Made by a program: the position numbers and the translations under genes. DNA of 64,000 nucleotides, from the IMG/VR virus record IMGVR_UViG_3300017963_000189; one strand, given 5' to 3'. A model generated the notes under the pieces. It was not told the DNA's origin. It ran no database searches and saw nothing but the letters and a program-made list of their open reading frames with translations. The DNA is from a virus. Lineage: Duplodnaviria > Caudoviricetes. Positions 45,287 to 64,000 of the stretch are shown here, one piece after another. Positions within the stretch are counted from its first letter, which is position 1; each line of letters opens with the position of its first letter.

Positions 45287-47098
45287 TCACTTTTTTTTCG
45301 TAAATTTCTTGATTTTCCCTTTTAAAATATTAACTAATTTATCTATATCTTCCTCAGTTTTTATCTTTTTCTTTGTTCCATATAATAACTCGGCATCAGA
45401 TCGTCCTCTCTTATCAGTACCAACAACCGCTATTTCTACCTCAACAATATTACCATATATTGATACATCCAACACAGTTTTCCAATCATCCGATTGTATA
45501 GATGTCCCTTTACCAGGAACTAAAGTTAAATTCCAACCTCTTTTTCCATAACGTCTAATTTTATTGTCTAATGTCTTTAGTTTTTTATCTAAAAGAGTAC
45601 CTATTCTTCTTTCACTTAATTCATTTTCTTCTGTTACTAATGTATTCTCTTTTAACTTATTTGGTTTAAACTGTATTCGTTGTCTCATTTTTCCTGGATA
45701 TGGTTCTAATTCAAGTGTATAACTACCATCATTGTTTTTATGTAACCACACACCATCATGTCCAGTCCCCAAACCAAAACCAGCTTTATTTAATTTAGCA
45801 ACCAACTTACCAGCATTCTTTAATGTCAATTCACCTTTAGATACCACTACTTCACCATCACCATTATCAGCAACATATTTAGACGCTTCATTCATCATTA
45901 TTTCTTTCACTACACTACGAATAACTTCTTTTATTTCGCCCATCATCATTTCATCATGGCGAAAATCTATGTACGCTTCCATACTTGGTTGATCATCAAT
46001 TTCACCGGATTGAATGTACATCAATGTATCTTTAGCTAATTCCTTCATTTCCTTAGCGTTATATTTATACTTTTTCTTAGCATACTTGAGTCCATCTTTT
46101 ACCATATCCTTGTCAGATTTGATTTCATTCACTCCCTCTCTGCGGGCTTTCTCTCCAGCAGATGCTTGAGCAAAATGTTTGTATTGTTTTTTAGTCATTC
46201 CACCTTTTTTACCACCTTTTTCTCCAGCACTGGCTTTAGCAAAATGTTTGTATTGTTTTGGAGTCATTTTTTCGTCAAGTATGTCGCCTTCTTTTAACTC
46301 GGATAAATCGGGCGCGTATATCATTTGAAACTTTGATCCAGGATTTTTTATCCGGTCTGCTTTCATCCTCGTCAAACAAGTATTCTTGGACGCAATACAT
46401 TGTACCACTCCATCACGAGTATATCCGTATTCAGCGTCAGTTGGTAAATCAGTTACAGTATTTTCCTCAACACTCTCTTTTATAGTTTTCAACATATCAA
46501 CAGGAATTACCATTTCACTACCCTTCATATGTCCAGTCAATATTTCAACATCGGCTAATTTGTCAGTCGAATAATTCATAATTCTTCCAGTGTCGCCTTT
46601 CAAACTTGTAAAGTTCTTAAAAAATTGTTTTGGAATATATTTCGATGTTACTTTATATATTTTTACTTTATCTCCGATACCTTCATTCATTGTACTCTCC
46701 TTTACAAGTAAATCTGCATTGTTGATATATCCTTTTTCTTTTCCAACTTTTACTATAGCGTACCCGCTCGCTGGAGCTTCGTCACTTACTTTACCCATTT
46801 TACCTTTATGTTTTCCATACATTACTTTAACTTTCGATCCAACAGGTATTTCACTATCAGGATATTCCTTAGAATAGTTTATCCAACCTTCATTTACACT
46901 CTCAGGAACTTCCTCAGGTAATCCCTTATGTTTTGTCTTAGCAAACTTTTCAGTATCCTTGTCTTTCATTGTTTTAGCAATACCTTTGATTTTATCCTGC
47001 AACGCCTTAGGAAGTTTACCCATTTCTAACTCACCCTTTTCATAGGCATGTACCATACCCATTAATCGTTGCTGCGATTTACTCACTGCTGGACACAT
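45287..47098 (-). CDS. Putative polyprotein of about 7 small basic modules
   Basis: 603 aa; modules bounded by SVNE, TMNE, SVEE, ILDE, GVNE, MMNE, ELSE; includes two KOW/SH3-like units and an N-terminal PAVSKSQQRLMGMVHA module. Confidence 0.7.
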   Translation of the reverse strand: MCPAVSKSQQRLMGMVHAYEKGELEMGKLPKALQDKIKGIAKTMKDKDTEKFAKTKHKGLPEEVPESVNEGWINYSKEYPDSEIPVGSKVKVMYGKHKGKMGKVSDEAPASGYAIVKVGKEKGYINNADLLVKESTMNEGIGDKVKIYKVTSKYIPKQFFKNFTSLKGDTGRIMNYSTDKLADVEILTGHMKGSEMVIPVDMLKTIKESVEENTVTDLPTDAEYGYTRDGVVQCIASKNTCLTRMKADRIKNPGSKFQMIYAPDLSELKEGDILDEKMTPKQYKHFAKASAGEKGGKKGGMTKKQYKHFAQASAGEKARREGVNEIKSDKDMVKDGLKYAKKKYKYNAKEMKELAKDTLMYIQSGEIDDQPSMEAYIDFRHDEMMMGEIKEVIRSVVKEIMMNEASKYVADNGDGEVVVSKGELTLKNAGKLVAKLNKAGFGLGTGHDGVWLHKNNDGSYTLELEPYPGKMRQRIQFKPNKLKENTLVTEENELSERRIGTLLDKKLKTLDNKIRRYGKRGWNLTLVPGKGTSIQSDDWKTVLDVSIYGNIVEVEIAVVGTDKRGRSDAELLYGTKKKIKTEEDIDKLVNILKGKIKKFTKKK

Positions 47099-47111
47099 AT
47101 TTTATCTCCTA

Positions 47112-47672
47112 TTATCTTACACTATTTACAAGTTTATACGCTTGTTTCAACGCTTTAGCTGCGTGTTTAGCACTTTGAAATACTTCGTAATCTTCACCAA
47201 TGTTTACCAACTCATTCAATCCATCTTCAACATCGGCTAATAGATTTTTGTAGTATTTGTAATCAGGTTTTTCTTTCTCTTGTAATGGCTGTCCTTGTTC
47301 ATCAAGAAATTTTTCGCCTTTTTCATTAAATTGTCCAGGAAGTCCTTTAAACTCAAAATTATCTTCCCTTTTTGGCGACAATCCTACAACTTGACCCACT
47401 GGTAATAAACTTGAAATCATTACCATTCCTTCATCTAACTTTTCTTTTTTAGATGTTTTGTTTTCACCTACATTTTCTTTTAAAGGTTGTATTACATCAA
47501 TAGGTACAACAATCGTAGCACCTTTCCATTCACCATCTAACATTTTAATGGTTACAGAATCTTCAGGTTGAACTACTCCAGAATCACCTACAAATTTTTT
47601 AAAAGTGCTTCCCGAAATCTTCCCTTTGGCGCGATGAATTTTTACTTTATCACCGGGTTTAAATTTAGCCAT
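47112..47672 (-). CDS. Three-module putative cargo protein (KOW/SH3-like + LDE-bounded repeat + helical)
   Basis: 186 aa; N-terminal module similar to a module of the 603-aa ORF; middle module duplicated in 47686-48375. Confidence 0.7.
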   Translation of the reverse strand: MAKFKPGDKVKIHRAKGKISGSTFKKFVGDSGVVQPEDSVTIKMLDGEWKGATIVVPIDVIQPLKENVGENKTSKKEKLDEGMVMISSLLPVGQVVGLSPKREDNFEFKGLPGQFNEKGEKFLDEQGQPLQEKEKPDYKYYKNLLADVEDGLNELVNIGEDYEVFQSAKHAAKALKQAYKLVNSVR

Positions 47673-47685
47673 TTAATTTCTCCAT

Positions 47686-48375
47686 TTATTTAAAAGGTTG
47701 TATCTTTCCTAATTTTGACATTTCTTTTTCAAATGCTTTAAAAGCATCTTCAACTGTTTTTTCAATTTTCTTCGGATCGGCTTCTTTCATTTTGATAGTC
47801 CACGTATGATCATTACCAAAACCAAAACTAACTTGATAATAATCCCAAAGTTTTGTTATTCGAACAGGAAAATATGTATTTATTATATTTTTTGGACGAG
47901 GGCTTAAATATTCAGTATCCCTTTTTTCGTTTATAGTTTCTTCCTCAATCTTATTACCCATTTCATCTAATACCTTTACGCCTTCTTCGTTGAATTGACC
48001 AGGTAATCCCTTAAACTCAAAATTGTCTTTTCGTTCTGGCATTAAACCAATGACACCACCAACAGGTAAAAGGCTCGACATCATTACCATACCTTCATCA
48101 AGTTTTTGCTTACTTTCACTTACAACTTTTTTCGCAGCAGCAAGCACATCTTTTTGATTTGTTTCAATCTCCTTTACAGCAGCTACAAAGAATTTTTGAG
48201 CGACACCCTTTTCACTCTTAGCTTTTTTCTTCGCTTCCTCATACATATCAAGAAACATCTGTGACGCTTCTTTTTTGTCTTTAGCTTTCTCAATACTCTT
48301 TGCACGAATTGTCCAATCTTTAGTCAATTTTGCTACAGTAGCAATATCTTTAAAGAATCCTTCATCTAATTTCAT
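47686..48375 (-). CDS. Three-module putative cargo protein
   Basis: 229 aa; MKLDE start; shares the LDEGMVM...FEFKGLPGQFNE...LDE module with 47112-47672. Confidence 0.7.
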   Translation of the reverse strand: MKLDEGFFKDIATVAKLTKDWTIRAKSIEKAKDKKEASQMFLDMYEEAKKKAKSEKGVAQKFFVAAVKEIETNQKDVLAAAKKVVSESKQKLDEGMVMMSSLLPVGGVIGLMPERKDNFEFKGLPGQFNEEGVKVLDEMGNKIEEETINEKRDTEYLSPRPKNIINTYFPVRITKLWDYYQVSFGFGNDHTWTIKMKEADPKKIEKTVEDAFKAFEKEMSKLGKIQPFK

Positions 48376-48388
48376 TTTATATCTCCTA

Positions 48389-48694
48389 TTATAAATTTTC
48401 TATTTTTAACGCGGCTTTCCGTAGCGCCATTGTGATTTCTTCTAATAATATTTTATGAGCTTCATCAAAATTCTCTGGGCTAACATATTTACGAATATGA
48501 TCTTGACCCTTTGTAATACCACTTAAACCAGCTTTATGATTACCTATAAGAGCAACAACAATCGCGTCAGCCAACCAAGCAAGTGCTCGTTTGTCTATTA
48601 CTTCATTTACTTCATCTTTCATTTCTTGAAGGCGATAATCTCTCCATTTGAAACTCATATCGGTATATGTTTTTGCTTTCTTTTTATCTCTCAT
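48389..48694 (-). CDS. Small putative cargo protein
   Basis: 101 aa; KWRDYRLQEMKDEVNE leader followed by a helical body. Confidence 0.65.
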   Translation of the reverse strand: MRDKKKAKTYTDMSFKWRDYRLQEMKDEVNEVIDKRALAWLADAIVVALIGNHKAGLSGITKGQDHIRKYVSPENFDEAHKILLEEITMALRKAALKIENL

Positions 48695-48698
48695 TGAA

Positions 48699-48914
48699 TT
48701 ACCCCTTATATTTTTTCTTCAATACATAAGCAACAAAAATTAACCATAACGGAACGATCAACGCGAACGGCCATCCAAATACGGCAGCAAGAAGTCCGCC
48801 ACCCGCAATCAATCCACACAACATTACAATCGTTTTCCAATGTTTGAATGAATATTCTTGAGCATCCTTGATCCACTCATTCCACTTTACCAAAAATTTT
48901 TCCCAAAAATTCAT
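48699..48914 (-). CDS. Small two-TM membrane protein
   Basis: 71 aa; hydrophobic TIVMLCGLIAGGGLLAAVFGWPFALIVPLWLIFVAYVL with basic C-terminal tail. Confidence 0.7.
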   Translation of the reverse strand: MNFWEKFLVKWNEWIKDAQEYSFKHWKTIVMLCGLIAGGGLLAAVFGWPFALIVPLWLIFVAYVLKKKYKG

Positions 48915-48916
48915 TT

Positions 48917-49525
48917 TTATTCTCCCATATCTATAAGAATATCAGTTACGATTTCTTGTACTTTACAATATTTGTTTACACATACTTGACCATACTTATC
49001 AACACTTTCTTGAATAGGTTTCATAAACGCACCGTGTGTCGATGGATTACTTACCATATCAAAAGCAATCAACTCAAAATCGTCTTGGACGACCGCACCA
49101 TGTTCAGCAGATTCTTGAACCGATCCCAACCCACGAGAAGAAATACCTACAAGAATACCACCTTTCAATAATTCTTGAAGAATTTTTCCTGCAGGAGTAT
49201 TCAACACTTCTATTGTACCGATTAAGTCTTTACCTTCCCAATGCATTTCAACTATATTATGACTTACATTAGCTAAGTTTACGACAGAAGAATCGGGATG
49301 ATCTAACTCACCCAATGCTCGTTTTTCGCCAATCAACTGTTCATATTTTTTCGCTTCCCTGGCGAGAATAGGTTGTGGATATACACGACCATTTTGATTT
49401 TGTGCTTCTGCTCGTTGTAATATACCCTTGATCAAAATCTTACCATTGTGTACTTTCATTGATTCTCGTATTACACCACCCGCTATTTCTAAAGGCATAT
49501 ACTCCGCTAATATCTGCTTATTCAT
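48917..49525 (-). CDS. gp21: Prohead core protease (T4 gp21-like)
   Basis: NQNGRVYP, LGELDHP, VSHNI, GISSRGLGS, DFELIAFDMVSNPS motifs. Confidence 0.95.
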   Translation of the reverse strand: MNKQILAEYMPLEIAGGVIRESMKVHNGKILIKGILQRAEAQNQNGRVYPQPILAREAKKYEQLIGEKRALGELDHPDSSVVNLANVSHNIVEMHWEGKDLIGTIEVLNTPAGKILQELLKGGILVGISSRGLGSVQESAEHGAVVQDDFELIAFDMVSNPSTHGAFMKPIQESVDKYGQVCVNKYCKVQEIVTDILIDMGE

Positions 49526-49541
49526 TCTTTATTCTCCACTA

Positions 49542-50198
49542 TTATTTTATAGGTTTTTTCAAATTTTTCAAGGCTTCTTGTTTCGCTTTAATATCGTTTT
49601 CTAAATCTTTTATTGTAGAATTTAAATCACTTTTATTTGATTCAAGAGCAGTATACCAACTACCTTTTTTACCAATTTTTTCAAGAGATTCATTCCGTGT
49701 ACGAGCATATACAGCAAACAAAGGAGTTCCCATACTATTGCCTTCCATATCACTTTGATATATCAAAAATAATTTTTCAGGAACTACTTTTGGATCAATC
49801 TCAACTAATTCATCATCAGAAAAACTATATCTATAAACATTTCCTTTCTTTCCATTAAATAAATATACATCTCCGTAATCTTTATTCCTTTTCGCTTGAG
49901 AAAATAAAGATTTGATTTTATTTCCCGCAAATTCTACATACCAATCGGCTAATACACCAACTTCTTTCGGCTTTCTTGTTCTTGGATTACCATAATTTTT
50001 CCAATTATCCATAGTCCAATCTGATACATCCAAGTTAGGAGTATTCTTTAGAGCATCCAAAAATTTATCTCTATTTTTCAAAGTAAGTTTGACGGCTTTC
50101 TTACCATATTTCTTAAAAAACGCACCACCAACATTTTCATTCAATAAAAAATTTTGAACTTCCTCTTTAATTATTTCATTCAATCTTGAACGTTTCAT
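49542..50198 (-). CDS. Class B leader (MKRSRLNEIIKEEVQNFLLNE) cargo protein
   Basis: 218 aa; basic globular body with C-terminal coiled coil. Confidence 0.7.
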   Translation of the reverse strand: MKRSRLNEIIKEEVQNFLLNENVGGAFFKKYGKKAVKLTLKNRDKFLDALKNTPNLDVSDWTMDNWKNYGNPRTRKPKEVGVLADWYVEFAGNKIKSLFSQAKRNKDYGDVYLFNGKKGNVYRYSFSDDELVEIDPKVVPEKLFLIYQSDMEGNSMGTPLFAVYARTRNESLEKIGKKGSWYTALESNKSDLNSTIKDLENDIKAKQEALKNLKKPIK

Positions 50199-50207
50199 TT
50201 TTTCTCC

Positions 50208-50585: not shown

Positions 50586-50589
50586 ATCT

Positions 50590-51153: not shown

Positions 51154-51159
51154 TTCGTT

Positions 51160-51414: not shown

Positions 51415-51423
51415 GATTCTTCC

Positions 51424-51633
51424 TTAAAAAGTAATTTCAATTTTCTTAGGCTTATTTTTCATTTTTTTTATTAACGCAACTAACTTATCATATAATTTTT
51501 GATCGTGATCGTGTTTTTTATCAGATGTATTATTAAAAATAATAACTGTACCTTGATAAGACGCAACAAAATCATTCCCACCTTCATTTAAAGTATTTTC
51601 ATTTAAAATTTTATTCCAAGTTTTCTTATCCAT
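51424..51633 (-). CDS. Class C leader (MDKKTWNKILNENTLNE) cargo protein
   Basis: 69 aa; body unrelated to the neighbour that shares its leader. Confidence 0.75.
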   Translation of the reverse strand: MDKKTWNKILNENTLNEGGNDFVASYQGTVIIFNNTSDKKHDHDQKLYDKLVALIKKMKNKPKKIEITF

Positions 51634-52757
51634 TAGAATCTCCGTATCTTATTAATGATCCTTGTCATTTTTTCATTTATCTTGTTCAAGGCTCTATGAG
51701 TATTTTTCCAATATTTTTGTGAATCAATTCCGGTCTCTTGTTTCAAACGAAGATTCAAGTCAATCGTTTTTTCTATCGATTCAAGTTGATTTCTTACGTC
51801 TCTAATGGCGACACCGATTTTTTGTTTGTTGTTCATTGTATCATCGTCACGATAATTTTGATAAGCTCCACGGCGACCCTCTTTGACCACTTTTATTACT
51901 TGACCAGAAGAATCTTCTACAGATATTTTAGCCCCTTTGTTATCCTTTTTCATCACACTAATAACATCGTCTATCTCTTTGTGATCAGTTGTATGAAATT
52001 GATCCACTACCTTATTATTCTTTATAGCAACTATTGAATAACTTTTTCTCGCTTCATTTACACTTTCATTCGTTGATCCCATATATGATTTTATTTCATT
52101 TAAAAAATAAGTTAAATCGGACAACTCAGCTAATCCCCAACTCTCATTTCGCCGTCTCGCTAAATTTAACTTTTTAATATAAGAATCTAACTTTTTCATC
52201 ATTCCTTTTTTGTCGGCTTTCGCTTCATTTATAATACCTTCCTCTAACTTGTCGCCACCACCGGTAAATGGACGCTTACCACCAAAATTACCAAAATCTT
52301 GTTTATCAGATTGAGTTACTTCTTGATATAATTCAATCGTTATTTCTTCATTCAATCCACTTCTTACTTTCATTTCAGCAAACTTCTTACGATATACTAA
52401 TGATTCTTTACGAGCATTTGCTAAATCTTCCCAATCCCGATCCTCAGGATCATTTACAAGTTTATATCCAAGTTGTTGTGAAATTTCCCTTGTCCTATCC
52501 TTCAAACTCTTGGCGAAAGCATATGGAGTTTGGTATCCATCTTGACCGCCCATGGCAGTTACTGAACTCACTTCGTCAAGTTCTTCATCTTTTCGTTTAT
52601 CACACGTTTCATTCTTTTCACATTTCTCACACGGCGTTCCACATTCGCCAATATCACATTTATCTTTTTCCTCGTCCTCAATGTCAAATTGATCCATTTC
52701 TTGTTCAATCATTGTTCGTATCAATTCACGAATATCACTTTCATTTAAATTAGCCAT
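51633..52757 (-). CDS. Putative polyprotein (probable start MANLNE at 52757)
   Basis: SD AAGGAG before 52757; class B-like leader; Cys cluster; modules bounded by ELDE, GLNE, IINE, SVNE, VVKE; C-terminal coiled-coil module QKIG...YWKNT. Confidence 0.7.
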   Translation of the reverse strand: MANLNESDIRELIRTMIEQEMDQFDIEDEEKDKCDIGECGTPCEKCEKNETCDKRKDEELDEVSSVTAMGGQDGYQTPYAFAKSLKDRTREISQQLGYKLVNDPEDRDWEDLANARKESLVYRKKFAEMKVRSGLNEEITIELYQEVTQSDKQDFGNFGGKRPFTGGGDKLEEGIINEAKADKKGMMKKLDSYIKKLNLARRRNESWGLAELSDLTYFLNEIKSYMGSTNESVNEARKSYSIVAIKNNKVVDQFHTTDHKEIDDVISVMKKDNKGAKISVEDSSGQVIKVVKEGRRGAYQNYRDDDTMNNKQKIGVAIRDVRNQLESIEKTIDLNLRLKQETGIDSQKYWKNTHRALNKINEKMTRIINKIRRF

Positions 52758-53667
52758 TGACTTTCTCCTTGTTAGGACAATCAACAACTTTTTTGACTTC
52801 TTTCAATAACTCAAAATATCTCATAAGTTGAACAAGTTGTTCTTCACTTACTACTTTACCACGTTTTAGTTTTTCAATGTTTGGTATAACACCTTCAACT
52901 TTTATTTGAGTCGCCTTATCTTCTATTTTAGGAATAAGTTGTGTTACTTCATCATTCACTCTATCAACTTCAGCATCAACGTATTCACGGAATTGATTTG
53001 TGTTTGACACATTATAGATATATTCACGAAGTAAGTTCTTTTGAGCAGAATCTAAACCATCGTATTTCTCATTGAATTTTTCAGTCATAGTTTTATATGT
53101 GATCAATCTCAAATCTTCAGTCATCTTCTTATATTCTTCGATAGCTTTATCATTTTCACTAACTTCAGGTTTAGTAGGTTGAGTTTGTGTTCCAATGATA
53201 TGTTCTATAAGAGTTGATTGACATTGAACTTTTTCGGCAGGTGGCAACTCACCATCTTCAGATGTAGCTGCTTCGAAAAGCTGATATATGGATGCTAAAT
53301 TTTTGTAATTAGGTAATTTACTCCTAAAAAATTCATCCACATTATAATTTTCTTTAATCTCTTTAATAAGATTATATTTTTCTTTACGTAAAGATGTATT
53401 GTTGATCTTCTTACGAGAATCAATAGATTCACTAATTAAATCTTTTGCTCGATTTTCAGATTGAAATTTGGTTTCCATTAATCCTTTGTATAAAGACAAC
53501 TCTTTAGATAATGGTTTTCCATTTCCATAATATCTTTTAATCAACTTTATCGCAAACGATTCATCGTTATCTTTACTTTCGTTTAACGCATCCGCAGTAG
53601 TTTGTCTTACTAAAAGCTCAAATAATAGTCCCGTGTTTTTGAACTTAGAATGTTTGATTCTTTTCAT
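52750..53667 (-). CDS. Helical protein downstream of portal (possible prohead core/assembly factor)
   Basis: About 305 aa starting MKRIKHSKFKNTGLLFELLVRQ; own TATTTATA motif upstream. Confidence 0.7.
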   Translation of the reverse strand: MKRIKHSKFKNTGLLFELLVRQTTADALNESKDNDESFAIKLIKRYYGNGKPLSKELSLYKGLMETKFQSENRAKDLISESIDSRKKINNTSLRKEKYNLIKEIKENYNVDEFFRSKLPNYKNLASIYQLFEAATSEDGELPPAEKVQCQSTLIEHIIGTQTQPTKPEVSENDKAIEEYKKMTEDLRLITYKTMTEKFNEKYDGLDSAQKNLLREYIYNVSNTNQFREYVDAEVDRVNDEVTQLIPKIEDKATQIKVEGVIPNIEKLKRGKVVSEEQLVQLMRYFELLKEVKKVVDCPNKEKVNG

Positions 53668-53741: not shown

Positions 53742-55616
53742 TTACTCTTTATTTTCTTCAATTTCGTCGCCAGAACCACTATTTTCGGTTATTTCTTGTC
53801 CTTCATCAACAAAATAGTTTTCTAACTTCTTAAAATCCACTTCCGTGATAACTTTTTTTGTTGTTAATATTTCTTTACCAAAAGCAGCTTCAGCTTTCCG
53901 TTTATTTCTTTGTAAATGTTTCTTTTTATTGGCGTCATATCCAACATCTTGATCCAATTTCATAATGTTTTGATAATCTTTTTTACCTATTGGATCATCA
54001 CCAAATGGATCATCTTTTTTTCTTGTTCGAGCATTCCCGCTTTTACGACCATCTTCCGACGGCTTCACAGGAACATATTCTTTTTCTTCATCGAATTGTA
54101 AATTAAAGTTTTTATTCTCACCAAATTGATCAGGATTACTTCCACCAAAACCTTGATCACTTTCAGCGGGATCATTACCCTCGTCCTCAATTTGTTGTAA
54201 TCTATAAACTCTCTTTTGATCGTCAATGACACCTTTCTTTTCTTCGGCGATTTCATCTTCCGTCATCTTCCATACATTTTTGTAAATCCAATTATCACTC
54301 AACATTTTCAAATCTTTTATATCTCTCGCCAAACTTGTTTTTGAATTCCAAATCTCGATTTTTTCTTGTTCGTAAATCGTAGATGGATTTGTTAACTCAA
54401 TCTCAAAATCAACTAAATCATTACCCTCAAATCCTTGAATGTATAAATGAACAAGGGCGACCTTTGTAAGCTCAGATACGATAATTTTTTGAATTCTCTC
54501 TATCGTTCGAGCAAATCGAACATCCTCAGCAGCCAACGTCGCTTTTCCACCGACTTCTTCCTCATATCCCAAGAACGCTTTAGGAATTTTAAGGGCAGCC
54601 ATTAACTTGTTTCTCAAGTATTCAATATCATCTATTTGACCATCATTTGACAAACCACTCAAAGAATCAATGTCAGTTCCACTATCCCCACCACGAACAG
54701 GAAGATAAAAATCTTCCGTCATATTTTGAAGATTGAACTTTAAGTTATATTCGCCAGTTTGTGGATCAATGTAAGGAACTTTCTTAACTTGTGAAATAAT
54801 CTTTTTCATGTAGGCGTCAACTTCATTCGGAGCAATATTTCCTACATCAACTTTAAAAATTCTTCGTTCAGGAGCTCTCATGATTCTATGAATCAACATA
54901 GCATCTTCCATAAGAATTAATTGTTTCCAAACCCTACGACCTGGCTCAATCATTGATTTTCCATATGGTAAAAAGTTTGAATCAGTCATCATTCTAAAAT
55001 GAGCAACTTCAAACATTTCCAATTCAGCCTTTCCGCTCGGCCCCTCAACTACAAATTGAACCGCAGTTGGTTTATTTGGATCAGCACCTTCCACACGTTT
55101 TACATCATAAACAGGTAATGGTAAAACATTCACTACTCCAAACTTTTCTGCTAACTCTAATTGTAAATAATAATCACCATATTTACACATTCCCCTTATC
55201 CATGTTGGTAAGGTGAATTCTACATTCATAATATCATAAAATAAATTCTCTAACACTTTTCTTACATTAGAACTTCCAGCTTTAATTCTAATCATGTCGC
55301 CCATTTCATTCTTCGTTGTCGTTTCTTCAGAATAAATGTCAAGTGCTGACGCTATGATCGAATCACTGTCCATAACTTCATAATCACGAAATAACTGCAG
55401 ACGCTGTGCTTCCATTCCATATAACGCTTGTTGTTGACGAAGGGCGTAATTAACGGTTGAATACATCCTCGTGAATTTATCATTACGATGTGTCAAACCA
55501 AATCGTTGTATTTGCCCAGTATCAACAACCTTGAGTTGTTTTCCACCAATATTGCGAATAACAACATCGGAAGAAAACATCTTTTTTAATTGTGCAAATA
55601 ATTTGTTGTCTGCCAT
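53742..55616 (-). CDS. gp20: Portal vertex protein (T4 gp20-like)
   Basis: LMEDAMLIHRIMRAPERRIFKVDVGN, EDFYLPVRGG, IDDIEYL..KL..ALKIPKAFL motifs. Confidence 0.97.
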   Translation of the reverse strand: MADNKLFAQLKKMFSSDVVIRNIGGKQLKVVDTGQIQRFGLTHRNDKFTRMYSTVNYALRQQQALYGMEAQRLQLFRDYEVMDSDSIIASALDIYSEETTTKNEMGDMIRIKAGSSNVRKVLENLFYDIMNVEFTLPTWIRGMCKYGDYYLQLELAEKFGVVNVLPLPVYDVKRVEGADPNKPTAVQFVVEGPSGKAELEMFEVAHFRMMTDSNFLPYGKSMIEPGRRVWKQLILMEDAMLIHRIMRAPERRIFKVDVGNIAPNEVDAYMKKIISQVKKVPYIDPQTGEYNLKFNLQNMTEDFYLPVRGGDSGTDIDSLSGLSNDGQIDDIEYLRNKLMAALKIPKAFLGYEEEVGGKATLAAEDVRFARTIERIQKIIVSELTKVALVHLYIQGFEGNDLVDFEIELTNPSTIYEQEKIEIWNSKTSLARDIKDLKMLSDNWIYKNVWKMTEDEIAEEKKGVIDDQKRVYRLQQIEDEGNDPAESDQGFGGSNPDQFGENKNFNLQFDEEKEYVPVKPSEDGRKSGNARTRKKDDPFGDDPIGKKDYQNIMKLDQDVGYDANKKKHLQRNKRKAEAAFGKEILTTKKVITEVDFKKLENYFVDEGQEITENSGSGDEIEENKE

Positions 55617-55685: not shown

Positions 55686-56045
55686 TTATATGTCCACTAC
55701 TTTTGTTCCGGGTTTCGGCTTAAATCCAACTTTTTTCATTACAGTTATAATCGTCAACTCTAATATATCACCTTTTTCTTTTAATATACCTACAAGATTT
55801 AGTTTTGTCCTTGAATCTCGTATAAGAATATAATCTCCAACATTTATGTTGTCGCCAATTAATTCCCGACTTATCGGCTCAATCGCTCTCTGAGCAACCG
55901 CAAGAATCTCCTTGTCAGTAATTTCCTCAGCGTGTCTAAATTGACGCTGACCGGCATGAACAGTCTTGTCTAACTCAATCGTTACATTGATCTTGCGAGA
56001 TACTTTACCAATAGATTTTTCCATAAGTTGTTTTAGTTTTATCAT
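55686..56045 (-). CDS. Class A leader plus DUF4258-like (BECR RNase-fold) domain
   Basis: MIKLKQLME leader; KTVHAGQRQFRH..EITDKEI...LTIITV pattern. Confidence 0.5.
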   Translation of the reverse strand: MIKLKQLMEKSIGKVSRKINVTIELDKTVHAGQRQFRHAEEITDKEILAVAQRAIEPISRELIGDNINVGDYILIRDSRTKLNLVGILKEKGDILELTIITVMKKVGFKPKPGTKVVDI

Positions 56046-56926
56046 AATCCCGTAGCACCTTCACCTTTTTTCCAACCTTGTTTCGCCCGAATGGCGAAAA
56101 GAAGTTGACCCATAAGTTTTTTATCGGCTTCAGTTGATGTCTTTTTCGCTTTAAGAGCAGCAACTTGTTTTTTAAGTTGTCCAATGGTTTTATCGGCATG
56201 TTGTCCCGTACTCTTTACATCTACATCACCTTCCCATTTTTCCATCAATACCTCTCTAACCACTTTGCGAATCATTTCTTTCAATTCACTTTTCTTCATG
56301 GTTATTTCTCCCAAATGATCTTTTAATATAAGGGCATATTTTGACCAATCTTTAGGTAAAATCATACTCTTATCTTTTGGTTGTCCTTTTAACACCTTTA
56401 TTCCATCTGGCGTAAACAACATAAGTTTTTTAGATTTTGGTAATTGTCCAATAATACCTTTTCCACTAAGAAAGTTTTTTGTTAACTCTTTCTTTTGATC
56501 TTGTGGAATGGGCATTTTTTCTATTCTAAAATCTATTCCATCAATACCCTTTTCATCATAGTCGCCGTGTGGCAATTCACATATCAAACTTTCATTCACA
56601 ATACTTTCTCCTATATTTCCAACAAACCCAATTTTCCAAGGCGTTGGCGAATATTCACTCCATTTTGACTTGTCTACCTCAACATCAAACATCTTTCCCA
56701 TAAATGTAAATCGACCCGCTAACTTGTCGATTGTTCCCGTTTTCGCCGAGTTCGCGATCTTCTTTATGATGTTTTTGTATTTTGGTACTTCGTCTGGCGA
56801 TTTTTTCAAGGCTTCATATACTTTCTTCCAAATCTTACCAAACTCTTGTAAGGTTTTCCGGTCTTCTGGTAAATTGACAGTCCCTCTATCAACCTGAACC
56901 TTGACCTTTTCTAATAATTTTTCCAT
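56042..56926 (-). CDS. Three-module putative polyprotein with internal restart
   Basis: 294 aa; boundaries IVNE, HLGE, VLME; internal SD plus ATG at 56299. Confidence 0.7.
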   Translation of the reverse strand: MEKLLEKVKVQVDRGTVNLPEDRKTLQEFGKIWKKVYEALKKSPDEVPKYKNIIKKIANSAKTGTIDKLAGRFTFMGKMFDVEVDKSKWSEYSPTPWKIGFVGNIGESIVNESLICELPHGDYDEKGIDGIDFRIEKMPIPQDQKKELTKNFLSGKGIIGQLPKSKKLMLFTPDGIKVLKGQPKDKSMILPKDWSKYALILKDHLGEITMKKSELKEMIRKVVREVLMEKWEGDVDVKSTGQHADKTIGQLKKQVAALKAKKTSTEADKKLMGQLLFAIRAKQGWKKGEGATGL

Positions 56927-57090: not shown

Positions 57091-57101
57091 CGTAATTCCC
57101 C

Positions 57102-57377: not shown

Positions 57378-57378
57378 A

Positions 57379-59010
57379 TTAATAAAATTGTTTTAAACTA
57401 ATTACTTCTTTTCCAATGTCCATTTCATTAGGATCACGAGTTATTATTCCTGGCTTGTAAACACCTAAATCTAACTCAGATTTTCCTATCCTATCTAACG
57501 CCATCTTAGTCAACTCAATCCCTTCACTTCTTAGCCGTAACGCTGTGTCCCTGACCCATAATAAAATACCTAACGACATTACTAAATCGTCATTTCGTCC
57601 ACTTTGAGCCTCAGCTTTACCGTGATTCCAAATGAATACCTTTAATTCATTTATCAATCGTTGAGAATAAATTTTGAAGGCATTATCTTCATTATTATTA
57701 TCCTCAAAATATCTTTCTATTTTAGCAATTAATAGGGCTCTATTTCTATGTGTTGTGGCGAAACCTGGTTTCATCTTTTTCATGTCACGATTTATTTTGT
57801 TGTTTATGTTTCGCATCGAATCAACATATTGTAAATCGTTACTTGAGTAAAATAAGTTTTGATAATTTATATCAATAAGTTCTTGAATAGTATCCCAACC
57901 GACATTCTCACGTTCAACAACGATCAAAGCGTTGTTGTATTCCACTCCAACGGCAGCAAGGAGTCTACCATATTCACGAGTGTTAGCTTGACCTTTATAC
58001 TCAGCAACCTGAGTTAAACTTTCCGCATCAAATACATGGAACGCGGAATAATCACTCCCGTCGCCTCGAGCAACGTCAGCAGCTATAATGTAAGAACGAG
58101 AATAATCGGGATATTCCCAAATCCATAACCCTTTATCAATAGAACGTTTTTCATTAGGCTCTCTTACAAAAGAATCTTCATAAAATTTCAATGTCATAAG
58201 ATCAACAACATTATTACCTGAAGCAAGAAAGTCAGCATCACATTCCTGAGAGGCAAGTCTTACACCTAAATCAACATCTTGTTTGTCTCTCCATTTTTGA
58301 TCTCTTTCCGGATGAACAGTCCATTTCAATGAAATAGTTTCGAAATTATTTTTCTTTTCTGTAGCGTCACTCCACATATCATAAAACCAATTACCCATAC
58401 CGTTAGGAGTTGATAATACAATACAATCTCCACCAGTATCAAGAGTTGATTTAGCAGCACCCCAGATTTCAACGATGTCACGAACGAACGCAGCTTCATC
58501 AATAATAAGAAGTGACAATGCTTCAGAACGACCAGCAGTTGGCGAACTTGAGACAGCTTTTATTTGTGATCCATTTTTAAAGGCAAGAGACATTTTGTTA
58601 TCTTCCAATGTTTGAGTTTTTAACCAACTTGGAAGTCCATCATACATAACTCTTACTTTTGTTATTAAGTTTTTCGCCACTTCCTTTTTCGTGGCGATTA
58701 CCAATATGTTTTGATCCTCGTTGAATAACATTAACCATAACGCGTAGGCAGCAGTCAACGTCGATAATCCTAACTGACGTGACTTTAAAATAATAGTATA
58801 AGCAGCTTCCTCAGTCCCACGATTACGAGCAAATACATTCGTACAATCCTCTTGAAATGGATATAAAATGAACGGTACTTTCCCACGTTTCGGATGTTGA
58901 ATAATACAATACTTCTTAAAGAAATAATTAGCTTCCCGAGCACAATGTTTATACTCACCAGCTATTATTTGTTTTAATGTCTTTTTCTTTACAGGTAATT
59001 GTTGTACCAT
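57379..59010 (-). CDS. terL: Terminase large subunit (T4 gp17-like)
   Basis: Walker A region LKSRQLGLST, Walker B LIIDEAAF, nuclease motifs ADVARGDGSDYSA and NDDLVMS. Confidence 0.97.
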   Translation of the reverse strand: MVQQLPVKKKTLKQIIAGEYKHCAREANYFFKKYCIIQHPKRGKVPFILYPFQEDCTNVFARNRGTEEAAYTIILKSRQLGLSTLTAAYALWLMLFNEDQNILVIATKKEVAKNLITKVRVMYDGLPSWLKTQTLEDNKMSLAFKNGSQIKAVSSSPTAGRSEALSLLIIDEAAFVRDIVEIWGAAKSTLDTGGDCIVLSTPNGMGNWFYDMWSDATEKKNNFETISLKWTVHPERDQKWRDKQDVDLGVRLASQECDADFLASGNNVVDLMTLKFYEDSFVREPNEKRSIDKGLWIWEYPDYSRSYIIAADVARGDGSDYSAFHVFDAESLTQVAEYKGQANTREYGRLLAAVGVEYNNALIVVERENVGWDTIQELIDINYQNLFYSSNDLQYVDSMRNINNKINRDMKKMKPGFATTHRNRALLIAKIERYFEDNNNEDNAFKIYSQRLINELKVFIWNHGKAEAQSGRNDDLVMSLGILLWVRDTALRLRSEGIELTKMALDRIGKSELDLGVYKPGIITRDPNEMDIGKEVISLKQFY

Positions 59011-59019
59011 TTCATTCTC

Positions 59020-59406: not shown

Positions 59407-59408
59407 GA

Positions 59409-59735
59409 TTAACTCCCATTCTTTTTATTATACTTATCGAAGATGTTTTTCATCTTCTCTCTCTTGTCACTCAAATCAACCTTTTGAGATTTCTTCTTTT
59501 TAATTTCCTTATCTAACTTCTTTCCCTCTTTTGAAGTGGCGTCGGCAGAATCTAAATGTTTCTTCCGCTTGTCCTCTAAATCCTTGATCTCTTTTTCCTT
59601 TTCGCCAATCTTGTCCTCTAACGCTGCAACCTTCTCGTCGGTTTTGTCCTTCGATGTTAAAACATACAAAGCAACAGCTCCAACTATCGCCAGAGCGCCA
59701 AGAATCCACTTCCACGCGGTTTTTAACCAACTCAT
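59409..59735 (-). CDS. N-terminal TM + coiled-coil protein (i-spanin/Rz-like)
   Basis: WKWILGALAIVGAVALYVLT followed by a K/E-rich coil. Confidence 0.55.
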   Translation of the reverse strand: MSWLKTAWKWILGALAIVGAVALYVLTSKDKTDEKVAALEDKIGEKEKEIKDLEDKRKKHLDSADATSKEGKKLDKEIKKKKSQKVDLSDKREKMKNIFDKYNKKNGS

Positions 59736-59753
59736 AACTTTTCCCCTTTCTTT

Positions 59754-60431
59754 TTATAAGGATTTTTTAGTTGAACCAGTTTGTGCTATTCGTTTCTTGG
59801 CAACTTTACGAGAAATTGTACCAGGAACTTCATTAAACATAACAAATTTAAGCTCTTCGCGAACCAACTTACGTACATAATTCTCAACTTTTTCTTGAGC
59901 AAGAATTTGATCACGTTTTTTAGCTTTCAAGCGTTGTGTTGGATTGTGTTCAGGTTCACCAGCAGCTTGAGAAACAGGTTCTAATGTTTCCTCAACAGCT
60001 TCTTCACCACTACCACCTTCACCTTTTGCTTTCCATTCGGCATCAACATCAGCAAAAAAGGTTTTCTTTTCTTCGTCACTCATTTGACCTAAATTACGGC
60101 CACCAAGTTTTTCTTTGAAAAACTTTTGGTATTCGGTTTCTTCTTGTAAAACTTCTTTGATAAGTTCTACAAGTTGTGTTCTTGTCATCTTCATTGTGTT
60201 TTCTCCTTGTTTATTTTCAGCTAATCCCACTATATTTACGTGCGGGATTGTTATATTATTTATTAAATATTGAGGCTTCCCTGTAAAATCTTTAGTCCTC
60301 TTTGCGATACGGCCAACTTTCTCTTTACTCTTTTCGGCTTTCGATCCAGCTACCATCGGGCTTGCCCCGTAATCAATGTAGTATTTTACCTTGTCGCCTT
60401 TTTTGTACATCTTTTTAGTTTTTTCTGCCAT
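59754..60431 (-). CDS. Putative polyprotein with internal restart
   Basis: 225 aa; KOW-like N-terminal module; internal SD plus ATG at 60194 giving MKMTRTQLVELIKEVLQE; YQKFFK...EKKTFF..VDAEW module. Confidence 0.7.
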   Translation of the reverse strand: MAEKTKKMYKKGDKVKYYIDYGASPMVAGSKAEKSKEKVGRIAKRTKDFTGKPQYLINNITIPHVNIVGLAENKQGENTMKMTRTQLVELIKEVLQEETEYQKFFKEKLGGRNLGQMSDEEKKTFFADVDAEWKAKGEGGSGEEAVEETLEPVSQAAGEPEHNPTQRLKAKKRDQILAQEKVENYVRKLVREELKFVMFNEVPGTISRKVAKKRIAQTGSTKKSL

Positions 60432-60441
60432 TGTATTACTC

Positions 60442-60969
60442 CTATCTTACCAATTCATGATCTTTACAATATTTTATTAATTTTTGTATATCTTCATCAG
60501 GAAAATCTTTACCATATACATTTCCTGCTCTACCTTTTCTTAAAAAATTCTCAAACCCTTTGTCCACTCGACCTTGAGCAGCTTGAACAGCAAGAGCAAC
60601 ATAATTCCTCTCCGCATCGTCTAAAAGATTTCCATTACTCAATACAAAATTTCTCAACTCAGGATACGCATCTTCATAAAACTTTCCTTGTGTCTTGAAA
60701 CTAATGTTTGGTTTTTTCTCAGGTTCCTTTTGACCTGGCTCACCTTTTTCCTTTTCCTTCTCTTGTTCGGCTTCCTCGCGATCTTCCTCTTTTTCTTCCT
60801 CATGATCAAATCGTTGTTTACTCAAATCTAACTTTTGTTGTTGTATGTCAGCTTTCTGTTTCGCAATGTCCTCTTTGTCCTTATCGATTTTTTCTTTTTC
60901 ATCTTCAGGTTGTTCCATAATCCTATTTATTTCTTCTATAATGATTTCCCTTATTCTTTGTATATCCAT
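60442..60969 (-). CDS. Class B leader (MDIQRIREIIIEEINRIME) protein
   Basis: 175 aa; charged coil plus globular C-terminus. Confidence 0.7.
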   Translation of the reverse strand: MDIQRIREIIIEEINRIMEQPEDEKEKIDKDKEDIAKQKADIQQQKLDLSKQRFDHEEEKEEDREEAEQEKEKEKGEPGQKEPEKKPNISFKTQGKFYEDAYPELRNFVLSNGNLLDDAERNYVALAVQAAQGRVDKGFENFLRKGRAGNVYGKDFPDEDIQKLIKYCKDHELVR

Positions 60970-60973
60970 TTTA

Positions 60974-61243
60974 TTATTCCCCTATTTGAGATTTTATTAA
61001 CATCGCAATTACAACTCCCAAAAGTCCAGCAAGTAAACCCCACACACCGGATTTAACTTGTAGTTTAGTTATCTCTCTTTCTAACTCATTTAATTTCGGT
61101 ACTATATCATCCTCTATCTTTTCCCTTATCTTGTCAACTTCTTTACGGAGTCGCCGTAAAGTTTCTATAACATATATCTTGTATCTGCCCCAACTCTTAT
61201 CATCATTCTCGACATTTCCAAGATCGCCAAATTTTTCATCCAT
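60974..61243 (-). CDS. Coiled coil + C-terminal TM protein (XhlA/holin-accessory-like)
   Basis: 89 aa; heptads then GVWGLLAGLLGVVIAMLI. Confidence 0.55.
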   Translation of the reverse strand: MDEKFGDLGNVENDDKSWGRYKIYVIETLRRLRKEVDKIREKIEDDIVPKLNELEREITKLQVKSGVWGLLAGLLGVVIAMLIKSQIGE

Positions 61244-61253
61244 GTTTCACCTT

Positions 61254-61526
61254 TTATTTTGCACTTTTGTTGAAAATACTATCTGCAGCAAATCCTACTC
61301 CAAATGAAGCAACCCATCCTAAACCACCACTGGCAACTAACGCTCCAAACGCTACTATAGCAGCTATCACCGTTACTACAGATTCTTTTAAATGAGTTTT
61401 AAAATATGTTTTAATATCGGCTAAAGTTTCACCTTTGATTTTTCTTTTCGCAAAGTGTGAAATAACACCTAATAACATAATAAAAAAGTTTAATAATACA
61501 TACCAAAATGTATATTCACCAAACAT
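61254..61526 (-). CDS. Holin-like three-TM membrane protein
   Basis: 90 aa; three hydrophobic segments with short charged loops and basic C-terminus. Confidence 0.55.
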   Translation of the reverse strand: MFGEYTFWYVLLNFFIMLLGVISHFAKRKIKGETLADIKTYFKTHLKESVVTVIAAIVAFGALVASGGLGWVASFGVGFAADSIFNKSAK

Positions 61527-62110
61527 TAATCCTCTCCCTCTTTAAGTTTATCTAACTCTTTATTCACTTCCTCAAGTTCTTTTTCCCAAAATTTGATCAA
61601 ATCATTTATATCAACATCCATCTTTTTCACTTCACCTTCAGATGTTACATATTCCAAACATCCCTTTTCTTTCATTTGTTTTATGTAACTCTCAATCTCA
61701 AGTTTAGAATCTTCATAAAATCCATTTTTCTTGTTATTCATATACTTTTCTTGATAACCAATAAAAGTACCCTCTTTCTCCATCTGGGCGTCCCGATCAA
61801 GTAAACATTGTAAACAAAACCCAAACTTATAATATACTTCAGTATCCTTTGACCTTTTACCCATTATTCCACTACATTTTGGGCAAAACAATGGTACTCT
61901 TACATCAGAAAACTTTGGAATACTTCTTACGATTCCATCTTTCATTTCCCACTCTTTACCATATTCATCTGTCCATGTGTCGCCTTCTTCGTGGCGCTCT
62001 TCTACCTTATCATAACCTATTTGAATCTTCTTGTCCGCTACACCGTGTAACGTCTCTTGAATCTTCTTTGGTTTTATGTAACCCATAGGCCTTAAACTTG
62101 ACTTCGCCAT
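61526..62110 (-). CDS. Zn-finger hypothetical protein
   Basis: 194 aa; CPKC...CLQC; SD AGGAGG. Confidence 0.75.
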   Translation of the reverse strand: MAKSSLRPMGYIKPKKIQETLHGVADKKIQIGYDKVEERHEEGDTWTDEYGKEWEMKDGIVRSIPKFSDVRVPLFCPKCSGIMGKRSKDTEVYYKFGFCLQCLLDRDAQMEKEGTFIGYQEKYMNNKKNGFYEDSKLEIESYIKQMKEKGCLEYVTSEGEVKKMDVDINDLIKFWEKELEEVNKELDKLKEGED

Positions 62111-62118
62111 ACTGCCTC

Positions 62119-62628
62119 CTATAATTTATTTTTTATCAAATTTTTTAATTTTATTCTCGTCTCTACCAAACCAAATTCTTTGGCTAATTTTATAGCTTCC
62201 GGTTCATCAGCCAAACCACTTTTTACAAGTTTTGTATAATACTCAGGATCTTCCACTAAATGATCAATGGCAATCTCTTTAGCAGCTTCAGGATCAGGAG
62301 TATGTTCCATTTCTACCGCAATACCAACTTTTAGTTGTTTTGGACAAACCTTTTCTTCAGGTGTCCCGCTTCCTTTACCACCAGGTATTATATCTTCTCT
62401 CGTCAAATGTTTTGGGAATGGAAACATCGGCTTACCACCAGCAGCTTTATTTTTTGGAGCATATTTATTCCATAATTTCTCAGCAACTTTCTTGTCCACT
62501 TGTCCTAATAAGCTGTGTATCTTCTTTTGAACTTCATTCCCTTTTCGCCATTGATGTCCACTCGCCGTATGATCATAATACCAATTATGACCCTTCATTA
62601 ACGATTCTAATTCTTGAGCAACTCCCAT
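62119..62628 (-). CDS. Two-module protein with DUF5661-like domain
   Basis: IPGG...QLKVGIAVEMEHT.D...AKEIAIDHLVEDPEYY..L after LTRE; N-terminal GHNWYY module. Confidence 0.65.
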   Translation of the reverse strand: MGVAQELESLMKGHNWYYDHTASGHQWRKGNEVQKKIHSLLGQVDKKVAEKLWNKYAPKNKAAGGKPMFPFPKHLTREDIIPGGKGSGTPEEKVCPKQLKVGIAVEMEHTPDPEAAKEIAIDHLVEDPEYYTKLVKSGLADEPEAIKLAKEFGLVETRIKLKNLIKNKL

Positions 62629-62639
62629 ATCATTACTCC

Positions 62640-63113
62640 TTATATTTTACCTTCATACCCAATAGCTTTATCACCAACAACTAATTCGGCATCATCGGCA
62701 TATTTTTTATTGACAATCACTAATGTTTTTCCACCATGTTTAATTCTAAAATGAGCAACAGGTGACATAACAAAATCAATGTCCTTTTTCTTGAAAATAG
62801 CTTCTAATGGTTTTCTCATACTCATTAAAGCATTATCTTTAGCTATTTCACCAACCTTAGCAATTATCGGGTCTGTCGCCTCATTTATATTTTTATCCTC
62901 TAAAACCTCAACAATCATTTCACGAATCTCTTGACGTATCACACCCTCTTTGATTTTTTTCTTCGCCGCTGGCCACTCTTTCTTGATACGATTGAAAAAT
63001 TCACTTCTCTTGTCGCCTAATTGAACAGGTGATTTCACTTCGTATTCGTCCATAAGAGCTTTGAAAAACTCCCGGTACGCTTGTTGTAATTTACTTAACT
63101 TTACTTTCGCCAT
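62640..63113 (-). CDS. Two-module putative cargo protein with internal class B leader
   Basis: 157 aa; YREFFK...KRSEFF..IKKEW module, then IRQEIREMIVEVLEDKNINE. Confidence 0.7.
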   Translation of the reverse strand: MAKVKLSKLQQAYREFFKALMDEYEVKSPVQLGDKRSEFFNRIKKEWPAAKKKIKEGVIRQEIREMIVEVLEDKNINEATDPIIAKVGEIAKDNALMSMRKPLEAIFKKKDIDFVMSPVAHFRIKHGGKTLVIVNKKYADDAELVVGDKAIGYEGKI

Positions 63114-64000
63114 TGTTTATCTCCTTATAGCTCTTTTTATTTTTCATTTCTTCTTTATGATACCCCTTTTTGAGTCTCAAATGTTCCTTGTCAAAAATAC
63201 CCTCTTTTACACCTTTTTTCAAATAATAACCTATTGACGAAATAGCATCACTTAAAAAATCTTCGTCAAATCTCAGATAATACCTGGCTCTCTTTTTACC
63301 CAAATCTTTTTCACTTTGAATGGCGATTTGTTTTATCATATCATCTTGTTTCATACCTTTTTTGACTTTTTTATCTTTAATCAACTTTTTCGCCAATTCT
63401 TCGTGATAATATTCCTCTTTCAATATATGTTGGTATTCCTCTACAATAATCTCATAAAGTCTTTCTCTTGTGATTCCCATTTTCACATTCTCCTTTTTGA
63501 GCCGTGATTTTTCTCGGCGACCCTTATTAGTTGATTCATCCTCAAATCCACTTATCTTGCCACCTTTATGTGACGCATCCTTTCCATCACCATTTCCATA
63601 TGTACCTTTATCCCTATTGTACTTATTCAACTCTGCTCGATATTTCTTCATCTTATCTGATGATTGAAATTTCTTGTATTCATCCTTGTAATCTCGTTCT
63701 TTTTCTTCTTTCATCAACCCACGATTTACAAACCATTGTTTGTAAAATTGTGGAACATTGTTGAATTCCCTTATGGGAAATTCTTTGAGTACCGTCCAAT
63801 AGGCTTCCATTTGTAAAGATTGTCGTTCATTGTTTTGTGATGAAATAGGTACAATCTCATATTTGTCGCCAATCTTCTCGGCGCTCATCCACGAGGCAAA
63901 TGAGTTGTTTGTCTTGATCGCAATACGGTCACCATACGATTGTGTACCATATTTCTCAACCATCGCCTCATATAAAGCCTTGTCCGCATATAATTTAAAA
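63091..64000 (-). CDS. Putative polyprotein incl. HNH-like module (5' partial)
   Basis: Frame is open to the window edge (FKLYADKALYEA before the track's Met); modules bounded by LMKE, LKKE, ILKE, GVKE; internal SD plus ATG at 63480. Confidence 0.65.
   Translation of the reverse strand, partial: FKLYADKALYEAMVEKYGTQSYGDRIAIKTNNSFASWMSAEKIGDKYEIVPISSQNNERQSLQMEAYWTVLKEFPIREFNNVPQFYKQWFVNRGLMKEEKERDYKDEYKKFQSSDKMKKYRAELNKYNRDKGTYGNGDGKDASHKGGKISGFEDESTNKGRREKSRLKKENVKMGITRERLYEIIVEEYQHILKEEYYHEELAKKLIKDKKVKKGMKQDDMIKQIAIQSEKDLGKKRARYYLRFDEDFLSDAISSIGYYLKKGVKEGIFDKEHLRLKKGYHKEEMKNKKSYKEINNGESKVK

Follow-up and report, generated by a model that had tools for sequence, protein, structure and literature searches.

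When two neighbouring genes become joined in frame, can the ribosome-binding site (RBS) of the downstream gene go on serving as a start inside the fusion? This question is raised by four long open reading frames (ORFs A, B, C and D) of an uncultured, distant T4-like phage, each of which carries, at a junction between protein modules, an internal Shine–Dalgarno (SD) sequence followed by an in-frame ATG. The source is a 168-kb IMG/VR virus record with an estimated completeness of 78%, and the window studied here, a stretch of 64,000 nucleotides, corresponds to bases 73798-137797 of that record. Comparison of the fused genes with their relatives indicates that, in two of these genes or more, selection maintains both the RBS and the start codon that belonged to the downstream partner. 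It is reasonably probable that B and C, and probably D as well, keep a working internal start from which a short protein would be made in addition to the long one; ORF A is excepted.

Small genes of this phage often open with a short leader, of which three classes are recognized: class A (MDKKTWNKILNENTL), class B (R-L-x-E-I-I-K-E-E-V type) and class C (MIKLKKLIKE). Simple patterns place a leader of one of these classes at the start of 18 of the 147 ORFs of at least 100 amino acids in the genome. The class B leader is short and amphipathic. The four ORFs, their junctions and the class B elements that accompany them are:

45287-47098, minus strand: ORF A, a multi-module ORF of 603 amino acids with DUF3008 and KOW-like units, in which a class B helix without an SD lies internally at about 45949
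46688-46702, minus strand: junction A, with AAGGAG at 46697-46702, a 6-nucleotide spacer and ATG at 46688-46690; LVKEST precedes MNEG
56042-56926, minus strand: ORF B, 294 amino acids, made up of an extra N-module, an ELPH..AVILKD module, a linker with the internal RBS, a class B helix and module X (EKW..GWKKGEGATGL)
56297-56312, minus strand: junction B, with GGGAG at 56308-56312, an 8-nucleotide spacer and ATG at 56297-56299; HLGEIT precedes MKKSELKEMIRKVV
56237-56299, minus strand: class B leader-like helix MKKSELKEMIRKVVREVLMEK of ORF B
59754-60431, minus strand: ORF C, 225 amino acids, made up of a 79-residue N-module with its own SD and a leader-bearing C-module (..ETLEPVS..KRVKAKKRDQIL..REELKFVMF..)
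60192-60208, minus strand: junction C, with AAGGAG at 60203-60208, an 8-nucleotide spacer and ATG at 60192-60194; KQGENT precedes MKMTRTQLVELIKEV
60138-60194, minus strand: class B leader MKMTRTQLVELIKEVLQEE, which opens the C-module of ORF C
63091-64000, minus strand, continuing to 64020: ORF D, 309 amino acids, with its start 57 nucleotides beyond the window end and the junction Met as residue 181; an N-module common to the relatives L003 and L006 is joined to a leader-bearing C-module
63478-63495, minus strand: junction D, with AAGGAG at 63490-63495, a 9-nucleotide spacer and ATG at 63478-63480; LKKENVK precedes MGITRERLYEIIVEE, and the leader MGITRERLYEIIVEEY extends to about 63421

Start signals at the four junctions

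An earlier note, made from the letters of this DNA, had pointed to the four internal sites, and all are present on the minus strand, in frame and with the motifs and spacings it described. As it had also claimed, a class B leader directly adjoins the ATG at junctions B, C and D; no leader follows the ATG at junction A. The use of SD sequences by this phage is evident from its ordinary genes, since GGAG or better is found 5-10 nucleotides before the start codon in 73 of 170 genes as against 1.2-1.6% of internal ATGs. True starts have a modal spacing of 7 nucleotides, and the spacings at A, B, C and D are 6, 8, 8 and 9 nucleotides, respectively.

To count as a signal, an internal site has to exceed what coding sequence produces by itself, and the mere pairing of SD and ATG does not. 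Genome-wide, GGGAG or a better SD at 5-10 nucleotides precedes 7 of 968 in-frame internal ATGs, compared with 13 of 2400 in frame +1 and 3 of 290 in frame +2. Enrichment of SD plus ATG was dropped as evidence because the in-frame count is not above that of out-of-frame ATGs. What is non-random is the coupling of an SD to a Met that is followed by a leader. In this genome, a leader follows three of the 11 internal Met residues that have GGAG or better, as against five of the 894 others (Fisher p = 7e-5), and the same coupling is observed in relatives (10/42 versus 8/3136, p = 2e-15, among 599 de-duplicated ORFs).

Codon usage and local RNA structure were compared as well. AAGGAG spells Lys-Glu in 18 of 352 cases genome-wide (5%), and Gly-Glu is spelled GGAGAR in 51 of 224, with GGA accounting for 41% of all Gly codons and for 23% of those before Glu. 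From the rarity of AAGGAG for Lys-Glu and of GGA before Glu, SD-like spellings are disfavoured within genes, in line with selection against spurious SDs there. Local RNA structure is weaker at true starts (mean of −4.9 kcal/mol) than at internal ATGs (mean of −8.3 kcal/mol, p = 7e-31). The values at the junctions are −5.6 (A), −6.2 (B), −3.0 (C) and −9.0 kcal/mol (D), with a mean of −5.95 kcal/mol from four sites only. Junctions A, B and C lie nearer to the true starts, a result that is mildly suggestive of working internal starts.

Junctions C and B among relatives

Relatives were collected by way of the terminase, an ORF B alignment and the protease, and related proteins by database searches; a scan of metagenomes with the ORF B alignment gave few additional lineages. 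An assembly or annotation artefact was ruled out, as the same fused frames occur in independent assemblies. The earlier note had called for a search of relatives for split and fused alleles at these points, and both states were found. The C-module begins a stand-alone gene from exactly the junction Met in relative L014 and in eight database proteins (130-144 amino acids), and it occurs in 14 fused forms whose N-modules fall into eight groups unrelated by BLASTP.

In each of the 11 fused junction-C DNAs that were read, GGAG lies exactly 8 nucleotides before the ATG and the junction Gly is encoded by GGA, followed by a codon that starts with G (Glu in eight, Asp in two and Gly in one). As a control, an invariant Gly elsewhere in the C-module of the same sequences is encoded by GGT in seven cases, GGA in four, GGC in two and GGG in one; synonymous sites in this module are thus saturated. 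The chance of 11 GGA codons in 11 sequences is 0.41^11 = 5e-5 at the genome-wide rate and about 1e-7 at the Gly-Glu dicodon rate, for sequences that share ancestry. Among the stand-alone genes with DNA read, three carry AGGAG or AAGGAG 6-7 nucleotides ahead of the start codon, and stop codons are found in the spacer or shortly before it. The distant stand-alone copy in L014 has no clear SD; the stop of the upstream gene is followed after 4 nucleotides by its ATG. Taken across these relatives, the conserved nucleotides strongly support junction C as a conserved, putative nested start.

In a tree of the C-module the fused and stand-alone forms interleave, with approximately six changes by parsimony, which is not fewer than with shuffled labels. 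A count of fusion events was not established from this tree, in which only two branches are well supported. Two further arrangements of the C-module were observed. In the L003 homologue of ORF C (7804-8000), an extra module is inserted between the N-module and the leader; this insert of about 55 amino acids (SYSIVAIKNNKVVDQ..ISVEDSSGQVIKVVKE) matches part of the 374-residue ORF at 51633-52757 of the window, at about residues 238-290, and appears to reflect module shuffling between different head-region genes. In L196:1-2648, genes with a NUMOD3 domain, which is of the homing-endonuclease type, lie to either side of a stand-alone C-module gene.

At junction B, the constant element is the upstream side. 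The IRKVVREV-type helix adjoins the ELPH..AVILKD module, always fused to it, in every lineage examined, and depending on the lineage it is followed by module X, by one of three other modules, by a DUF4258-like neighbour gene or, as in L009 and L104, by nothing. All five lineages (the window included) that have the Met and a sizeable downstream module carry TGGAG 7-8 nucleotides before the ATG. Their linkers read HLGEIT, QAGEIA, WSIN, NMEDIN and WRID, such that GGAG is read in all three codon registers. In two lineages in which the ORF ends right after the helix, the Met is present and the SD is absent. Junctions without the Met are of three types: the one in L002/L094 keeps GGAG, and those in L091 and L098 are without it. 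Module X is also found alone, in proteins that open with Met and a class B leader (for example MKISKDRIKEII..). These comparisons support junction B as a conserved, candidate nested start.

The ELPH module and its helix enter other arrangements too. In L091:2395-3099 and L102:8273-8977 they are fused in frame to the DUF4258-like protein with neither Met nor SD. In the window this protein is the separate next gene, 55686-56045, and opens with the leader MIKLKQLMEKS, the place of which is taken by RTRDLIEAS in the fused L091 and L102. On the other side, the first 100 or so amino acids of ORF B (56620-56926) precede the ELPH module, and in several relatives (L006:11912-12070, L010:2355-2510) a gene of its own starts with the ELPH module (MKLITELPH), preceded by a small ORF that is separate and overlaps it. 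The N-terminal side of ORF B may therefore be a second, Met-less fusion. At the junction in L002/L004, the start of the helix is written GGA GAG ATA AAA GAG, so that the GGAG of the junction SD makes up the first helix codons, the segment with the ATG having been lost.

Gene fusion, decay and alternative readings

The arrangement of ordinary genes in this phage offers a route to such junctions. Its genes are packed so tightly that the SD of one gene usually falls within the last codons of the gene before it. Among the 170 pairs of neighbouring genes, 104 overlap or are at most 12 nucleotides apart and 14 are one in-frame stop apart, so fusion across an RBS should be easy. Two out-of-frame overlaps in the window, regarded by the earlier note as the unfused state, are real, and in both the last codons of the upstream gene spell the SD of the next one:

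52750-52770, minus strand: unfused state; the end of gene 52750-53667 (..CPNKEKVNG, then stop) supplies AAGGAG for the ATG at 52757, out of frame
63091-63130, minus strand: unfused state; the end of ORF D (..SYKEINNGESKVK, then stop) supplies the AAGGAG that serves the out-of-frame ATG of gene 62640-63113

If a stop codon is lost or a short insertion or deletion occurs, two such neighbours become joined in frame, and the linker between them is the translated former RBS. Read as GGA-G, the GGAG gives Gly followed by Glu, Asp or Gly; the other registers give Trp-Ser, Trp-Arg or Met-Glu-Asp. A linker that is a translated RBS (GGA-Gxx, xxG-GAG) would explain why Glu is frequent at junctions and why it is not conserved when the register changes. 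Translation from the gene's own ATG would yield N-module, leader and C-module in one chain, and initiation at the internal SD and ATG would yield the leader and C-module alone.

The proposal that the long ORFs link, through an unbroken RBS, units known elsewhere as genes in their own right is supported by the C-module, by module X and by relative L006. In L006, the N-module of ORF D and the window genes 62640-63113 and 62119-62628 form a single ORF of 685 amino acids. At its junctions GENK, KENK and GEDK each precede MNE, with GGAG, AAGGA and GGGAG, respectively, 7-8 nucleotides upstream. The third of these (SGEDK before MNEQTLSKLQLAYREFF) is the in-frame fused counterpart of the window overlap at 63091-63130. 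Across the sequences compared, a history of fusion and fission is apparent together with conservation of GGAG-N7-8-ATG at the nucleotide level, and from this conservation we infer that initiation takes place internally. The argument for a working internal start is that GGAG is conserved at B and C, that the ATG is co-conserved with it at canonical spacing and that the SD tracks the downstream module. The earlier expectation that one ORF yields both long and restarted products thus agrees with the conserved SD and ATG at B and C, where the internal RBS is conserved beyond coding needs, and fails at A, where it is not.

Several observations weigh against working internal starts. A direct IMG/VR search for relatives of ORF A returned none, and in those reached instead through the protease the module order is shuffled and junction A has no SD. 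The nearest of them, L109, keeps DLLVKE..MNE as gtg aaa gaa aat aaa ATG, without an SD and with a different module next. Junction A is probably a conserved peptide junction, the SD of which would be a chance synonymous spelling of Lys-Glu beside a conserved Met. At junction D, the RNA is as structured as at an ordinary internal ATG and there are no informative relatives: the database search gave no homologues of similar length for the C-module of ORF D. L003 keeps the N-module and ..SRLKKE at this point, spelled AAG GAA, has no Met and continues with another module; a later leader in the same homologue is preceded by GGGGAG-7-ACG, an SD without a start. Junction D is plausible as a nested start by analogy only. 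The 11 fused junction-C sequences are related and not fully independent, and with the two well-supported branches of their tree the fused junction may have a single origin. In addition, the class B helix is not confined to the role of N-terminal leader, since of 29 internal contexts 16 have a Met within 12 residues (eight of these with GGAG) and 13 have no Met. Finally, where the ATG has been lost, either with GGAG kept (the GGGGAG..ACG of L003 at a D-type junction, and L002/L094 at B) or together with it, the internal start is dispensable in the lineage concerned. The window itself holds one case of combined loss:

47454-47468, minus strand: decayed junction within gene 47112-47672; GENK precedes TSKKEKLDEG, written ggt gaa aac aaa ACA, with SD and ATG both lost

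The counterpart in L109 comprises a fused paralogue, caa gga gaa aat aaa ATG, and a stand-alone paralogue, and comparison with it indicates that SD and ATG can be lost together. Where the ATG is lost, the SD tends to go as well, which speaks for a working internal start at junctions that keep both.

The homologue of ORF D in the closest relative (L003:2309-4201) is 635 amino acids long. Between its N-module and the ERDYKDEYKKFQSS segment lies an insert of about 290 amino acids that by eye is protein-kinase-like (..GEGGHGYAYV..DTHLGNLMIDKDGNYKFIDIG..).

Such decay would also be expected if SD and ATG were relics of recent fusions that are no longer used, with only the full-length protein made and perhaps cut later by the prohead protease. 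The mechanical ease of fusion fits this alternative, as do the ACG in L003, the lost ATG in L002/L094, the loss of both elements at 47454-47468 and an SD at junction A that L109 does not share. A relic would, however, not be expected to keep GGAG-N8-ATG in all 11 fused junction-C DNAs while the control Gly is saturated, to survive register-changing indels at B, or to be present according to whether a downstream module is present. We therefore regard the relic explanation as unlikely.

A different constraint was put forward in the earlier note, namely that the SD doubles as the Lys-Glu or Gly-Glu codons of a cleavage site, its bases being kept both as the Glu of a protease site and as an RBS. 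The motif of T4-type proteases is (L/I)-x-E, to which only HLGE at junction B conforms. An SD-encoded Glu is present at all four window junctions and a T4 gp21-type protease is encoded by this phage, T4-type proteases being known to cut after Glu (PMC9026906). The residues themselves do not bear out a cleavage role: at C, Asp or Gly replaces Glu while GGAG is unchanged, and at B the GGAG that encodes Gly-Glu in the window is read as Trp-Ser, Trp-Arg or Met-Glu-Asp in other lineages. No conserved cleavage motif was found at the junctions (GE, GD, GG, WS, WR, MED), most of the P3 residues (Q, K, V, I, R, E) do not suit (L/I)-x-E, and L-x-E and I-x-E motifs that fit better are contained in the leader. 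As GGAG stays constant while the encoded residues vary, Glu is best seen as a by-product of translating GGAG, and selection at B appears to act on the RNA signal and not on a Glu. Dual coding is accordingly improbable.

It is very doubtful that GGAG acts instead as a translational pause, a domain-boundary signal or a recombination hotspot for module swapping. GGAG does always stand at module boundaries, and modules are swapped between lineages downstream of it at B and upstream of it at C; none of these signals would need the ATG that is co-conserved at the canonical 7-8 nucleotides, and stand-alone genes use the same SD and ATG as their real start. In a coding strand rich in A and G, SD-like strings may precede in-frame ATGs by chance, in keeping with the equal in-frame and out-of-frame rates (7/968 and 13/2400). 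Chance probably accounts for junction A and for sites such as window position 14143, but as a general explanation it is highly improbable, being excluded for B and C by the leader coupling (p = 7e-5 and 2e-15) and by conservation in relatives.

The head-gene block and known nested genes

The region studied is the head-morphogenesis block of this distant T4-like phage, in which the minus strand carries nearly all genes. By DNA, the closest cultured relatives are Flavobacterium phages (genus Immutovirus) and Microcystis phage Mel-JY01, with approximately 66% identity in the terminase and portal only. The genes that place the block are:

57379-59010: large terminase
53742-55616: portal
48917-49525, minus strand: T4 gp21-type prohead core serine protease (Peptidase_S77, E = 4.7e-30), the presumed processor of the leader-bearing proteins

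The portal genes of L010 (3199-6876) and L009 (3100-5004) are interrupted, in frame, by long inserts that show intein or homing-endonuclease-like features; the portal ORF of L010 has at least 1227 amino acids and two such inserts.

The class B leader, which contains L-x-E and I-x-E motifs, also opens separate genes at 60969, 52757, 50585, 50198 and 43763, and the class B helix is found at C-termini in L009 and L104. A sub-type of the helix, GEIKE[IV]IR.VVRE, occurs internally without a Met in several proteins: after DUF3008 in L112 (13962) and L143, in ORF A (45949) and at the B junction L002:2541, and also in L109:11612. The class C leader opens at least eight genes (window 33374-34080 and 55686-56045; G000:C1:147083-151893). 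One class C gene carries a 7-residue upstream extension (MERRSLAMIKLKKLIKE), which suggests a mis-called or alternative start.

A function for the leader may be sought in T4, the internal proteins of which bear a 10-residue capsid targeting sequence (CTS) that is removed by gp21 and that is perhaps an evolutionary device for loading varied proteins (PMC9026906). In phiKZ-like phages, many head proteins are cut at S/A-x-E (PMC9026906). Similar to the T4 internal proteins (IPI-III, Alt), the present system combines an S77 protease with a short conserved N-terminal peptide that has L/I-x-E and stands on unrelated bodies. In contrast to the CTS, the leader is longer, differs in sequence and is also internal and C-terminal. 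Given the T4 precedent, the encoded S77 protease and the leader motifs, the leader would be a CTS-like targeting peptide or a pro-peptide cut by this protease at its L/I-x-E motifs. Both translation products would then mature to the same C-module, which would make fusions tolerable. Multi-module ORFs together with a Glu-specific type of head protease also recall protease-processed virion proteins, such as 'polyvalent proteins' and the giant-phage head proteins cut after Glu. Unlike in those proteins, the junction Glu is not conserved here, and the distinctive feature is the retained RBS and not cleavage.

A more far-reaching possibility, which we put forward tentatively and think unlikely as it stands, is that the class B helix serves for capsid targeting or docking even when it lies inside a protein. 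Leaderless N-modules would then hitch-hike into the prohead by means of the leader on the module downstream, the conserved RBS would determine how much hitch-hiker is made relative to plain cargo, the protease would separate the two in the head, and units of RBS plus leader would be the exchange points of combinatorial cargo loading. If this were true, fusion, fission and N-module swapping would be routine evolution of a cargo-loading system.

A literature search on internal initiation together with gene fusion in phages gave nothing specific, and the nearest known systems are nested genes. Lambda C/Nu3 is the classic nested in-frame head gene. In Mu and Mu-like phages, an in-frame scaffold start lies inside the protease gene with an SD 8-9 nucleotides upstream (PMC4378225), and the essential short form of T4 gp21 starts internally, at Met45 (PMC9026906). 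The junctions described here share with lambda C/Nu3, Mu I/Z and T4 gp21/gp21s an internal SD and in-frame start within a head-region gene and a common C-terminus of the long and short products, the short product being predicted in the present case. Unlike those nested genes, the junctions occur in small accessory leader-bearing modules and not in a protease, scaffold or capsid gene, and there are many of them in one genome. They differ further in that the upstream partner is freely exchanged (eight unrelated N-modules for one C-module) and in that the relatives include split, fused and decayed forms side by side. A nested in-frame start is an established feature of head genes; what differs here is the recurrence of such starts in accessory, probably head-internal, proteins.

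That one C-module is found joined to eight unrelated N-modules, each time with GGAG-N8-ATG intact at the junction, is an unusually clear comparative signature, and it separates a constraint at the RNA level from the protein-level constraint proposed earlier. It provides a picture of how phage proteins may gain N-terminal domains, in which an upstream gene reads into the next RBS and the short product is retained. It is also a warning for annotation, as such ORFs may encode two proteins. If the leader is a targeting peptide, the junctions would provide a natural template for packaging fused cargo in T4-like capsids.

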